Positions 3,118 through 24,726 of a stretch of 25,577 bases of DNA are shown piece by piece. Origin of the DNA: a virus (lineage: Duplodnaviria > Caudoviricetes); IMG/VR virus record IMGVR_UViG_3300044724_004329, positions 1 through 25,577 of that record. One strand, 5' to 3'. Position 1 is the stretch's first letter. The number at the start of each line of letters is the position of its first letter. Both the position numbers and the translations under genes were made by a program. The notes under the pieces are model-generated. The model saw only the letters and a list, made by a program, of their open reading frames with translations. It was not told where the DNA came from and did not search any database.

Positions 3118-3308
3118 GTGGATTTGGTGATTACAACGTGGAGTTTGAAGGTCTGGACATGAACAGTGACCAGGTTCAAGCACTTGTCAAGAAGTATAAG
3201 AAACTCAAGAAGTATCAGAGGTCCAGTCTCTTTGCAGTTAAGACCATGGATGGAACAGAGGATGTCATCTCTAAGATGATTGAGGAAGCAAAGGAAGCAA
3301 ATTTGTAA
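3114..3308 (+). CDS. hypothetical protein
   Basis: 64 aa; ATGA overlap with the upstream stop. Confidence 0.75.
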   Translation: MSGFGDYNVEFEGLDMNSDQVQALVKKYKKLKKYQRSSLFAVKTMDGTEDVISKMIEEAKEANL

Positions 3309-3313
3309 CAAAT

Positions 3314-3343
3314 TTGACTAAATAATATTACTGGTGTTATAAT
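3314..3343 (+). promoter_or_regulatory. sigma70-type promoter driving the riboswitch leader
   Basis: TTGACT (3314-3319), 18 bp spacer, extended TGnTATAAT (3335-3343); predicted +1 near 3350, the first base of the aptamer; CTAAATA at 3318-3324 overlaps it. Confidence 0.8.
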
Positions 3344-3349
3344 ACACCT

Positions 3350-3643
3350 ATCGTTCATCACATTCGCTGTTTGCGAATAGCGAATGAGACGCAAGTAAGT
3401 CGCGGAACGGATCGTTCAGATTATGGTTGATTTTCTCATCTTTTTGAATCTAATCACTCAAAGAGCACCTGTTGACCCAGAATATTATTTGTCTTGTGAG
3501 CAGTCAGCATGGATGAGAGAAAGAATCTTACGTTCAGAGTTGCTTGATGCTGGCCAAAAGCTAGACTTTGTGACAAGAACATGGGAAGGAACAGATCCTT
3601 CCTGTAAAGAAGACCATAATCCGCAAACGACTGAAGGAACGGG
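3350..3643 (+). ncRNA. double glutamine riboswitch (glnA / Downstream-peptide-like), second unit with an ~185-nt insertion
   Basis: Two ATCGTTCA...CGCAA...GGAACGG units; hairpin 3361-3386; AGTA/GAA E-loop-like strands; AGTCG (3398-3402) pairs with CGACT (3628-3632); GATTATGGTT (3419-3428) pairs with GACCATAATC (3612-3621); YRG peptide downstream. Confidence 0.82.
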
Positions 3644-3710
3644 GCCTAAAAATCTCATTCTTCAGGAGCAAAATCATGAACACTCTCAACCTGATTCGTC
3701 AGCAGATTAA
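3423..3710 (+). CDS. hypothetical protein encoded inside the riboswitch
   Basis: 95 aa ORF with hydrophobic N-terminus and Cys25/Cys61; ATG lies inside the aptamer stem. Confidence 0.6.
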   Translation: MVDFLIFLNLITQRAPVDPEYYLSCEQSAWMRERILRSELLDAGQKLDFVTRTWEGTDPSCKEDHNPQTTEGTGPKNLILQEQNHEHSQPDSSAD

Positions 3711-3843
3711 AAAAGCATCTGCACTGCACGATGCACAGATTCATGCCACCTCTTATCGTGGTATCGAGTACAGTCTGTGCGGTCACGAGCCCTCTGAGAC
3801 TCACGGAACCTTTTGTTATCGCGGACACACTTACAACAAGTGA
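3676..3843 (+). CDS. DUF4278-like 'downstream peptide' (55 aa); not in ORF track
   Basis: MNTLNLIRQQIKKASALHDAQIHATSYRGIEY...TFCYRGHTYNK; two YRG motifs; AGGAG RBS at 3664-3668; directly after a glutamine riboswitch. Confidence 0.85.
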   Translation: MNTLNLIRQQIKKASALHDAQIHATSYRGIEYSLCGHEPSETHGTFCYRGHTYNK

Positions 3844-3872
3844 TTGTCTTCACATTTGATTAGTGTTATAAT
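3844..3872 (+). promoter_or_regulatory. sigma70-type promoter
   Basis: TTGTCT (3844-3849), 17 bp spacer, TGnTATAAT (3864-3872). Confidence 0.65.
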
Positions 3873-3897
3873 GGGAGGAGAGATCCTCCCTTTTTTT
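3873..3897 (+). terminator. Rho-independent terminator closing the riboswitch transcript
   Basis: Perfect GGGAGGA-GAGA-TCCTCCC stem with GNRA loop, followed by T7. Confidence 0.85.
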
Positions 3898-4065
3898 ATG
3901 GAAAAAGATAAACTCAAACTTATTGTGAGGAACCTTAAACTCCTGGTCGATGCTTTGGAGTCTGAGGTCTACTCAGATGTTGAAGCATACAAATCAGATT
4001 ACCAATCACCAAAAATTTCAGATTACGACGAGGTATGGGACGATGACGACGGGTACCCTGACTGA
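3898..4065 (+). CDS. conserved cyanophage hypothetical protein (acidic C-terminus)
   Basis: MEKDKLKLIVRNLKLLVDALESEVYSD...DDDDGYPD; in-frame ATG of ORF 3844-4065. Confidence 0.75.
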   Translation: MEKDKLKLIVRNLKLLVDALESEVYSDVEAYKSDYQSPKISDYDEVWDDDDGYPD

Positions 4066-22653: not shown

Positions 22654-23237
22654 TGTCAGAAAAAAAGAATTATCACCAGGTTCGATACGGAACCGCAGAG
22701 GGTGAGATCAAGTTCGGTCACATTCACAGTGATAATGAGCAGTCTGCTGTGTTGCTTCGCAACGGCAAAACGTGGCGTCATTACATCACATTAGACCAAA
22801 CAGGTAAACCACACAGGAAACACGGAACAATGTGTGTTTCACCTGGTGCTTTTCAGGTGATTGCTGGCGATGGTTACACTGACAAAGAAAAAGGTCAACC
22901 TGCCATCTACATGGATGCCAAGAAGGGAGACATGGTTCTTCGCTGTCCAGAAGGCACTCTTAGAATTGAAGCTAAGAACATTGAAATGATTGCAAAAGGT
23001 CCTGATGGTGAGAATGGATCTGTTACAATAAATGCAAATGAAAAATTTATTGTAAACGCTGCATCCGTTGACATCAGTGGAAAGGTCTCAACCAAAATCT
23101 TTTCTGAAAAAACAGTTGAGATGATTGGAAGAGGAATTGTAAATATTTACGGTGGATTAGTTGACATGGCTGATGGAGCAACATCTGTCATTGGATCGAA
23201 AGGCGGATCAACAAACGAGGATCAAAACAAATTATGA
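22653..23237 (+). CDS. probable spike beta-helix protein (gp5 C-terminal-like)
   Basis: Short alternating beta-strand repeats (IYMDAKKGDMVL, LRIEAKNIEMIA, VTINAN); TAATG-coupled. Confidence 0.55.
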   Translation: MSEKKNYHQVRYGTAEGEIKFGHIHSDNEQSAVLLRNGKTWRHYITLDQTGKPHRKHGTMCVSPGAFQVIAGDGYTDKEKGQPAIYMDAKKGDMVLRCPEGTLRIEAKNIEMIAKGPDGENGSVTINANEKFIVNAASVDISGKVSTKIFSEKTVEMIGRGIVNIYGGLVDMADGATSVIGSKGGSTNEDQNKL

Positions 23238-24019
23238 AGGTACCTGATTTATACGTTGGTAAAAGACTCTTCGTTGGAGAAGGGAGACCAATCGCACTTG
23301 GCATTGGACCATTGGAGATTCGTGGATCTTCTTACATTGAAGGTCCCGTGATGATGGGATCCCCTGGTGGATTCCCAAATGTTTGGGCAACGACCATGAT
23401 TGGTCCTTGTGTGAACACAGATTTAAAAACACCACCTTTGATTCCAGGTGCGCTTTGCACCGGAGTCAATAATCCTTATTCTCTTGCAGTTCAAGGTGGA
23501 TCTGCTTTCCTTGGAAACATTGACACCGCTTTGAATGTCAACGTTGGTCTCAACCTGATTGCTCAGGGAGAGGTCATGTCACGTTGTGGTGGCCACATTC
23601 TTTCTGCAAAGAAGAACTTTGACATTCCACACCCCAGTAAGGAAGGTTATCGTCTGAGACACACCTGTCCAGAAGCACCTTATAATGACGTATATATACG
23701 TGGTAAAGTAAAGAACACAAATGAAATCAAACTTCCAGATTATTGGAAGGACTTTGTGGATAAGTCCACCATTACGGTAAATCTGACTCCGATTGGTGCT
23801 CATCAGAATGTGATTGTGAAACGAGTGGAAGAAGAGAAGATTGTGCTACAATCTACAGGTGGAATTCCCATTCATTGTTATTATCACGTCTTTGCTGAGA
23901 GAAAGGATGGTGAGAAATTGATTCCTGAATATGAAGGAACAACACCAGCAGATTATCCAGGAGACAATGATCAATATTCCATCTCAGGTTATCATTACGA
24001 CGTTAAGGAGAGTTCATAA
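23234..24019 (+). CDS. virion/tail protein with C-terminal KNFDIPHP domain
   Basis: KKNFDIPHP..RLRHTC.E.P, LPDYWK, ITVNLT motifs. Confidence 0.75.
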   Translation: MKVPDLYVGKRLFVGEGRPIALGIGPLEIRGSSYIEGPVMMGSPGGFPNVWATTMIGPCVNTDLKTPPLIPGALCTGVNNPYSLAVQGGSAFLGNIDTALNVNVGLNLIAQGEVMSRCGGHILSAKKNFDIPHPSKEGYRLRHTCPEAPYNDVYIRGKVKNTNEIKLPDYWKDFVDKSTITVNLTPIGAHQNVIVKRVEEEKIVLQSTGGIPIHCYYHVFAERKDGEKLIPEYEGTTPADYPGDNDQYSISGYHYDVKESS

Positions 24020-24726
24020 TGGCATTCGTCCCACTTTCTATCGGCAATAAAGATTGCACCACCCAGACTCCTGGATCACCAGACCCTCAGTATCATTACA
24101 TTCTGAAGGCAACCACTGGGGACACTCTTTATCCCCCTGATGCATGTGCTCTCCTTTATCATTCTTGGTTTCAGGTTGATCGCATTCTGTTGAACACAGA
24201 CATCACTGGAGCGGGATTGATCAATATTGCTGGAAGTATTACAACAGCATCTCTCGTTGCTGCTGGTGGTGAGGTGACTTCTAATGGTGGTGCTCACATT
24301 CTTTCGGTGAAAAAGAACTTTGACATTCCACACCCAACTAAAGAAGGTTGGAGACTTCGCCACACCTGTATCGAAGGACCAGAGAACGCTGTGTTCTTCC
24401 GTGGAACAATGCGAGACACCCAATACATCAATCTTCCAGATTACTGGAAAGAACTGGTGAACCCAGAAAGCATTACGGTTCAACTAACTCAGATTGGAAC
24501 CTCACAAGATCTAATTGTGGAGAAAATTGAATATGGTCGAAGAATTAAAGTAAAGTCTGGCAACGCATCCACCATTCATTGTCATTACCTGGTTCAGGGA
24601 ACTCGCAAGGATGGTGAAGATCTCATCGCTGAATATGAGGGTGAAACTCCTGCTGATTATCCAGGTAACAACGATGAGTATTCAATCTCTGGTTATCACT
24701 ATGATGTAAAGGAGGATAAGAAATGA
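24019..24726 (+). CDS. paralog of the preceding tail protein
   Basis: Shares the ~140 aa C-terminal domain, ending ADYPG.ND.YSISGYHYDVKE. Confidence 0.75.
   Translation: MAFVPLSIGNKDCTTQTPGSPDPQYHYILKATTGDTLYPPDACALLYHSWFQVDRILLNTDITGAGLINIAGSITTASLVAAGGEVTSNGGAHILSVKKNFDIPHPTKEGWRLRHTCIEGPENAVFFRGTMRDTQYINLPDYWKELVNPESITVQLTQIGTSQDLIVEKIEYGRRIKVKSGNASTIHCHYLVQGTRKDGEDLIAEYEGETPADYPGNNDEYSISGYHYDVKEDKK

Follow-up and report, generated by a model that had tools for sequence, protein, structure and literature searches.

A predicted nested double glutamine aptamer that encloses a conserved small gene in T4-like cyanophages

Riboswitch aptamers are normally non-coding and lie upstream of the gene that they control. 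In the cyanophage locus analyzed here, a gene lies within the predicted sensor fold, and the Shine-Dalgarno (SD) position, the start codon, and usually the stop codon of that gene are parts of the helices. This locus raises the question of how such an RNA is folded, whether the enclosed reading frame is a true gene, and what glutamine would do to the two genes of the transcript.

The window, i.e., the whole 25.6-kb stretch of DNA that was analyzed, is a piece of a T4-like cyanomyophage carrying thyX, phoH, and the genes for an ssDNA-binding protein, a helicase loader, and baseplate and tail proteins. The nearest records of the region 3300-3900 are those of Synechococcus and Prochlorococcus phages (423 records), and the element is present as a single copy in the window genome. 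Two adjacent paralogous genes at 23234-24726 of the window each match phrog_17490 and phrog_28536, which have no assigned function. The predicted transcription unit comprises the following features:

3314..3343, + strand: sigma70-type promoter TTGACT-18-TATAAT with a TG extension (11/12 match to the consensus; predicted transcription start at ~3350)
3423..3710, + strand: nested ORF of 95 aa, with a hydrophobic N-terminus and a two-helix hairpin between C25 and C61
3676..3843, + strand: DUF4278-like (YRG-repeat) gene of 55 aa (phrog_545, E 3.8e-30)
3873..3897, + strand: intrinsic terminator-like hairpin with a T run, found by pattern scan, at the end of the two-gene unit

A TTG[AC][CT] box with a TAnnnT box located 7-9 nt 5' of the aptamer was found in 113/141 homologs. 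What we take to be a T4-type late promoter core, TAAATA (TTGACTAAATA), overlaps the -35 box (window 3314-3324); this overlap is also found in many homologs, which suggests both early and late transcription. The predicted promoter and the terminator-like hairpin would give a two-gene transcript of ~550 nt. Overlapping the terminator region (window 3844-3897) is another sigma70-like promoter (3844-3872), from which the genes that follow, in the direction of thyX, would be transcribed.

For the comparative analysis, 204 loci were gathered: 80 via the downstream peptide, 120 via the RNA motif, 3 from GenBank, and the window itself. The 5' motif was present in 192 of the 204 loci, 7 lacked the 3' half, and 151 unique segments were kept, 139 with a long inner loop and 12 compact, with a 12-27-nt hairpin instead. 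The parser demanded CGC[AC] at the second junction, excluding CGAA variants, three loci of which were met separately. A targeted scan for CAACG strands covered 120 loci, 30 of them without the 3' half, and gave 69 unique segments (67 parsed, 2 by eye). Since the homologs are related, all counts are numbers of sequences and not of independent events, and dN/dS values are pairwise.

Topology of the RNA fold

The sequence-only reading had placed two glnA-type aptamer units side by side in this leader. The motif CGTTCA...CGCA...GAACGG is indeed present twice, and so is the ordinary short hairpin described for the first unit (3361-3386), but the covariation shows a nested arrangement with a permuted inner core in place of the tandem topology. 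Similarly, GGAACGGA at 3404-3411 is a P1 strand, as had been proposed, but 3405-3409 pairs with 3413-3417 and not with 3352-3356. Judged from the natural variation, the element is one outer core of the glutamine-I type, within whose P3 loop lies a circularly permuted second core that has the order of its P1 strands reversed. Its parts are:

3352..3356, + strand: outer P1 5' strand CGTTC, with C1 and G2 of the ligand pocket; pairs with 3637-3641, and Infernal aligns compact homologs likewise
3358..3389, + strand: outer P2 hairpin, predicted; its closing triplets covary in homologs
3390-3393, 3394-3397, and 3398-3402, + strand: outer junction CGCA, E-loop 5' half AGTA, and P3 5' strand AGTCG
3405..3417, + strand: inner permuted P1' hairpin GAACG-GAT-CGTTC, covering the SD position of the nested ORF
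3419..3428, + strand: inner P2' 5' strand, containing ATG 3423; forms a 10-bp helix with 3612-3621
3612..3625, + strand: inner P2' 3' strand (3612-3621) and inner junction CGCA (3622-3625)
3628-3632, 3633-3635, 3637-3641, and 3642, + strand: P3 3' strand CGACT, E-loop 3' half GAA, outer P1 3' strand GAACG, and G3642
3631..3665, + strand: alternative OFF hairpin, CTGAAGGA (3631-3638) with TTCTTCAG (3658-3665), predicted at 0.72-1.0; covers the start of the downstream SD, AGGAG 3664-3668

Thus read, AGTA-AGTCG of the former first unit and CGACT-GAA of the former second unit are the two halves of one E-loop/P3. The P3 pairing (3398-3402/3628-3632) is kept in 149/151 segments (138 unchanged, 4 AGTCA/TGACT, 1 AATCG/CGATT, and 6 wobbles) and broken in the other 2. 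When one middle strand reads CAACG, the other always reads CGTTG, in 12/12 cases of the first set, where the outer strands stay CGTTC/GAACG, and in 69/69 of the targeted scan, where 7 of the 69 unique segments carry the double change CGTTT/AAACG in outer P1. These natural double changes support the nested topology across 250-850 nt, because only nested pairing leaves both P1 helices intact in the CAACG segments. The P1' strands stay matched even across insertions of 591-597 nt, as C/G in 5 loci and as G/C in 6, and 5 further G/C loci have a 64-nt remnant between them (neither set deduplicated). The CAACG label changes 11 times on a tree of the nested proteins (FastTree, 62 columns), at least 5 of these changes being forced by strong branches, and some could reflect recombination of the 13-nt hairpin. 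In 7/12 compact loci, the Infernal alignment gives a single RF01739 aptamer (38.4-43.6 bits) whose P3 loop takes up 38-48 nt; in 4/12 the best RF01739 hit is the 3' unit only, and the last locus is a triplet. In constrained folding, the nested fold was lower in energy than the tandem one in 112/113 homologs.

Two ordinary side-by-side aptamers (3352-3409 and 3413-3641), perhaps with a loop-loop contact, could be argued from the presence of CGTTC/GAACG in both units, which allows either pairing in 136/151 segments, from the scores of each half on Rfam models in compact loci, and from the 157 glutamine doublets that are listed as tandem in the excerpts of PMC9481103. Such an arrangement would nevertheless leave both tandem P1 helices mismatched in all 69 CAACG segments, 7 of which change their outer strands together, and would give each half only half of the E-loop and P3. 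Moreover, the tandem P1 pairs are predicted at <=0.01 in the window. The CAACG segments already largely refute the tandem reading, which we regard as very improbable.

The long-range helix proposed for the second unit was confirmed as P2' of the nested fold: 3419-3428 and 3612-3621 form nine Watson-Crick pairs and one G-U pair, closing 183 nt, with ATG 3423 in the 5' strand. The 3419 strand can form at least 10 contiguous pairs (G-U allowed) at only 11/25,555 window positions. In the 139 long inserts, the closing helix has a mean of 5.9 bp, whereas shuffling the partners gives 4.0 +/- 0.1 and at most 4.4 in 1000 shuffles, and its closing pairs vary in concert (TCC/GGA, TCT/AGA, GATT/AATC, GTCT/AGAC, CCCC/GGGG), i.e., the covariation that a genuine helix had been expected to leave was found. 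In the clade of the window, P2' has been rewritten to 10 bp.

The unconstrained fold of the window contains P2' (0.82-0.99) and P1' (0.84-0.96), and outer P1 and P3 are not formed. The nested fold costs 11 kcal/mol above the free ensemble in the window (median 7.2 in homologs), a predicted gap that would exceed the supply of a millimolar ligand in a model that ignores the E-loop and tertiary contacts. As modeled, this gap counts against the glutamine-switch reading.

Some relatives show other arrangements. In the triplet L161:444-770, an additional aptamer unit comes first, followed by a middle unit with the ORF and a compact last unit, and L030 contains two glutamine-aptamer-like elements ~800 nt apart in one locus (522-773 and ~1330-1380). 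In the CGACCCAAG variant (L060, L068, L378), the last P3 pair and the E-loop are broken and the usual stop codon is lost, the ORF being lengthened to 58 aa in L060 and L068; these loci possibly carry a decaying switch.

The enclosed gene

The 95-aa ORF (3423-3710) runs as initially described, with NPQTTEGTG read through the aptamer and an overlap of 35 nt with ATG 3676. Read-through to 92-95 aa with such an overlap (26-35 nt) occurs in 9/138 ORFs, all from the clade of the window, and in a shifted frame. In 111/138 the stop codon lies in the aptamer 3' strand (TGA/TAA in CGACT[GA]AAG) at the position of TGA 3632-3634, which is out of frame in the window; 15 stop in P2', before P3, and 3 elsewhere. 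The ATG is located 3-5 nt into the stem in 138/139 long loops, with ORFs of 49-95 aa, and 10 nt into it in the other one.

The codon conservation expected of a translated loop is also observed, dN/dS being 0.14-0.28 in frame vs 0.52-3.25 in the other frames in 7/7 length groups. The 9-member clade of the window has a dN/dS of 0.17, with 220/92/426 mismatches by codon position, and its 7 members with GAT have 13 synonymous vs 10 non-synonymous variable codons. All 138 ORFs encode exactly two Cys, 33-40 residues apart, and C25 and C61 are invariant in 77 aligned proteins. This pattern of sequence evolution indicates that the loop ORF is a real gene under selection as a protein.

A non-coding or spliced-out loop with an incidental ORF would fit the lack of a Pfam family and of a solved-structure match for the product, as well as the RNA-library contigs that skip 3419-3621. 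It would have to coexist with purifying selection, an invariant Cys pair, and a kept frame; furthermore, the two skips whose letters are shown replace the loop by a short hairpin, as compact DNA homologs do, and other RNA-library contigs are unbroken through the loop, for which no sign of splicing was found. We therefore give this possibility hardly any weight, even less than the tandem arrangement, and retain the reading of a selected gene. Fourteen RNA runs of 11 studies contain 0.22-0.49 of the words of the element, and contigs from 3/4 RNA runs cross the loop unbroken; these contigs are from relatives and could stem from DNA contamination, and they are not taken as proof of transcription.

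The structure model has helices at residues 25-37 and 43-55 (pLDDT ~88), a short N-terminal hydrophobic helix, and a tail below 55. Residues 67-95 correspond to aptamer and leader sequence in a shifted frame, and this 29-aa tail is likely a by-product because it is encoded by invariant aptamer/leader DNA and modeled with low confidence. As modeled, the nested protein would probably be a small hairpin that is anchored in the membrane or exported and closed by a disulfide.

No Pfam family was found for any of 77 nested proteins, nor a Foldseek match at E 0.001 in PDB or BFVD, and ESM Atlas gave no usable match for the nested protein. Among the best six matches in BFVD, the top four named ones are uncharacterised cyanophage proteins. 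A profile search gave 403 matching proteins, and among the 120 matches listed none has a Pfam domain or an informative name. The nested protein of the window matches phrog_13397 weakly (E 0.0016), and the family members fall in phrog_504, phrog_13397, and phrog_6471. These phrogs and the T4-like GC 430 (S-SM1 SSM1_203, Syn1_232) are the nested ORF family itself, the window member differing from the GC 430 proteins by the extra 29-aa frameshifted tail. The ORF is annotated as a hypothetical protein in S-SM1, Syn1, S-RIM2, and S-TIM61, in records without an RNA feature around it. There were no free-standing copies among 410 profile hits in the gathered loci, a search whose queries were nested genes and which distant free relatives could escape; 26 hits flagged as not nested were recognized as parser errors when inspected, caused by an upstream Cys or by a CGAA junction.

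Further genes are lodged in the element of some relatives. In 25/141 homologs, the triplet L161 among them, the stretch parsed as outer P2 is 199-249 nt long and contains a second ORF with two Cys, a paralog of the phrog_6471 type (e.g., L070:1025-1222, L093:498-695, and L366:504-704 of S-TIM61), and 23 of these 25 have ORFs in both stems. The ATG of this second ORF lies ~12 nt from the predicted transcription start, with no space for an SD. In addition, the inner P1' hairpin loop is interrupted by a homing-endonuclease-like gene of 190 aa, which matches phrog_314 (E ~1e-8) and no Pfam family, at L068:712-1281, L075:663-1232, L364:740-1312 (S-H68), and in L367-L383, 5 loci having the 64-nt remnant only.

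Ligand pocket and predicted switch

The proposed homology to glutamine riboswitches was upheld. With the Rfam models, there were no hits at the gathering score in the window, where RF01739 reaches 19.2 bits at 3350-3413 (cut-off 35), and none of 10 other ORF-carrying loci reaches that score, but 8/12 compact homologs attain 35 bits. The Downstream-peptide model RF01704, also invoked at first, gave no window hits at E up to 10, and its 3' helix would have 4 non-standard pairs in one aligned compact half. Ten other Rfam hits near the locus at E up to 10 (sraL, symR, FopS, and others) are below the cut-off and were taken as chance.

The element shares with glutamine-I (RF01739), as described in the excerpts of PMC6212724 for the Synechocystis gifB/IF17 leader, the three-way junction, the E-loop, and C1/G2/G22/C58/G59. 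The outer core has the complete P1-P2-P3 junction with the E-loop (AGUA/GAA), and the inner core is without an E-loop. The glutamine contacts reported in PMC6698751 (excerpts), C1:G59, G2:C58, and G22, correspond to C3352/G3641, G3353/C3640, and G3391 in the outer core and to C3413/G3409, G3414/C3408, and G3623 in the inner one. The long-range pair G23-C60 of glutamine-I (PMC6212724, excerpts) is absent; both cores have C23 and G60, and the pair can form, but reversed as in glutamine-II. Other differences from glutamine-I are that the present RNA is phage-borne, has a second permuted core in the P3 loop, encloses a protein gene in a P2-type stem, and scores below the Rfam cut-off in the window. 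With glutamine-II (RF01704; PMC6698751, excerpts) it shares the CGCA junction and the GAACG-G end (at 3390-3393/3637-3642 and 3622-3625/3405-3410), a short YRG/DUF4278-like gene downstream, and the picocyanobacterial setting, and it differs from it by lacking a pseudoknot 3' helix and by the P3 and E-loop of the outer core. We have not classed the element as a plain RF01739 member because the Rfam score failed, the long-range pair is reversed, and the core is a nested double. Nevertheless, it is predicted to be a variant of a known riboswitch and to work like a glutamine-I ON switch, and the intact pocket bases, together with homology, point to binding of L-glutamine at millimolar levels by both cores.

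The missing E-loop of the inner core and the CGAA at the inner junction of 3 loci count against sensing at two sites. They would suit an RNA in which only the outer core senses glutamine, or which senses something else, with the inner core as a structural remnant that hosts inserted genes; the homing-endonuclease insertions tolerated in the P1' loop (17 loci) and the low Rfam score of the window point in the same direction. Against this, the inner pocket bases are near-invariant, the P1' strands remain matched across the long insertions, and glutamine-II has the same pocket, also without an E-loop (PMC6698751, excerpts). We consider a mere remnant improbable and continue with two glutamine-binding cores as the preferred reading.

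The prediction that the DUF4278-like (YRG) gene is ON with glutamine likely holds, given a covarying anti-Shine-Dalgarno hairpin and the folding energies. The 55-aa product has DUF4278 (PF14105) as its sole Pfam match (E 5.4e-4; 20.7 bits, cut-off 25.3), and a YRG-type gene lies downstream in 69/101 motif-picked segments, 31 of the other 32 ending at the locus border. The two strands of the OFF hairpin read CTGAAG/TTCAG in 72 segments, CTGAAG/TTTAG in 33, CTAAAG/TTTAG in 34, and CTAAAG/TTCAG in none, with 12/151 outside this table. Opening the downstream RBS costs 9.6 kcal/mol in the free RNA of the window vs 4.5 in the nested fold, and among 110 homologs the nested cost is lower in 99 and higher in 4. 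The gifB leader precedes a DUF4278-type gene, for which the gene downstream of the present RNA is a candidate, and has an anti-RBS helix releasable by ligand, and the ON mechanism postulated for it in the excerpts of PMC6212724 is the same as the one predicted here. The DUF4278 N-terminal moiety of IF17 is dispensable for IF17 function (PMC6316151, excerpts), and inhibition of glutamine synthetase by the downstream peptide is not established because the likeness is limited to the N-terminal part of IF17.

At the inner start, the P1' loop reads GGAG in 114/136 ORF forms vs 0/12 compact forms, and the SD position of the nested gene begins with G3409 and G3410, which are predicted to be locked by the ligand. 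The window has GGAT and not the usual GGAG, as do 7/9 members of its clade, and GAT is the loop type of 7/12 ORF-less forms; this loop counts against an inverse toggle in the window and its clade. Without ligand, the P1' hairpin over the SD position is predicted at 0.84-0.96, and opening the inner RBS costs 11.2 kcal/mol in the window and a median of 10.2 kcal/mol across 100 homologs. Since the inner RBS is thus predicted to be closed even without ligand, glutamine may add little there.

In the mechanism that we propose, covariation supports the nested fold (outer P1/P2/P3/E-loop with inner P1'/P2') and sequence evolution supports a loop ORF selected as a protein, and for these two steps together our confidence is high. 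L-glutamine would then occupy both cores. Without it, 3631-3638 would pair with 3658-3665, a pairing indicated by covariation, and block the DUF4278-like SD; with it, the 3631-3638 strand would be captured by P3, the E-loop, and P1, freeing the SD, a direction taken from gifB. Binding and downstream switching are jointly probable. In the last and weakest step, glutamine in the inner pocket would lock G3409 and G3410 and stiffen P2' around ATG 3423, and every ribosome on the nested ORF would have to unwind P2' and P3; granted the preceding steps, we lean slightly toward this one. Nitrogen sensing and translation of the nested gene would likely compete on one mRNA. The complete scheme of a nested double glutamine aptamer enclosing a conserved gene, in which glutamine turns the downstream gene ON and the nested gene likely down, stands at even odds in our judgment. 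We have graded the inverse toggle lower because the start is already buried, the fold costs 11 kcal/mol, and the OFF hairpin, too, would be opened by ribosomes that translate the nested ORF.

The same nested RNA and gene might also work without an inverse toggle, the nested gene being expressed at a low, glutamine-independent level and its ribosomes being coupled to the downstream gene; they would stop on the OFF hairpin in most phages or cross it in the window clade, and by opening it allow refolding of the RNA or reinitiation by the ribosome. The stop codon lies within the anti-SD strand in the 111/138 homologs mentioned above, the inner RBS is predicted to stay buried whether ligand is bound or not, a wide energy gap separates the free RNA from the bound fold, and the ORF of the window clade overlaps the downstream start by 26-35 nt. 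However, the compact forms (12 of the 151 segments) keep the switch without any ORF, and so it can do without the coupling; the SD-like loop, which is confined to ORF forms, coincides exactly with the two bases that the ligand would lock, and 15/138 ORFs end before P3. This coupling is a serious but rather unlikely alternative to the inverse toggle, which we keep as the working scheme. As a speculative extension, the element may be a pseudo-symmetric double sensor with up to two genes in its P2 stems, in which glutamine would shut the nested and open the downstream gene and ribosomes would reset the switch at the OFF hairpin, i.e., a translation-clocked, two-output nitrogen gauge; we find this possible, though the balance is somewhat against it.

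Distribution and relation to known systems

The motif is common, occurring in an estimated ~2,400 IMG/VR stretches and in 437 records of phages with Synechococcus, Cyanophage, Prochlorococcus, or Marine in their names. Cultured phages have several forms of it: compact in Bellamy, with one ORF in S-SM1, Syn1, and S-RIM2, with two ORFs in S-TIM61, and with the endonuclease insertion in S-H68. A 21-letter pattern has 6 matches in 185,579 prokaryote genomes (GTDB), all 6 with the nested ORF, and we take these as phage contigs because the neighbours in L204 resemble the upstream phage genes of the window (ORFs were listed for two of the six). Two of these GTDB contigs, L204 and L207 (194 and 188 kb; a Synechococcus MAG and a Nonlabens assembly), resemble whole phage genomes inside cellular assemblies.

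Structured RNAs with a reading frame in a peripheral loop are known from the ORFs in group I intron loops and the tag ORF of tmRNA. The present case is unlike them in that the host RNA is a metabolite-sensor fold, with the start codon and SD position within its helices. Glutamine riboswitches were already known in cyanophages, including a 99-nt glnA hit in S-CREM1 (PMC9964418, excerpts), and it is the nested layout that appears to be new. CfrI was considered as the identity of the RNA and rejected, being an antisense RNA at psbA (PMC2984593, excerpts). Neither the nested fold nor the enclosed gene was found described in the literature, with the proviso that the supplements of PMC2864571 may comment on long P2/P3 loops; the motif gave 0 matches in the alignment archive of 2010, in files whose gap characters could hide it. 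The element may have stayed undescribed because the Rfam cut-off missed 11/11 ORF-carrying versions tested.

The element resembles the published tandem glutamine doublets in having two aptamer units per leader (PMC9481103, PMC2864571) and differs from them in that the units are nested, share P3, and have swapped P1 strands. The excerpts of both papers describe the doublets as tandem and mention neither nesting nor an ORF, and those of PMC9481103 mention no phage. Some of the published doublets may be compact forms of the present RNA, and the natural circular permutation and nesting alter how they should be read. Should the switch function as proposed, RNA would give marine cyanophages a direct reading of the glutamine of their host.
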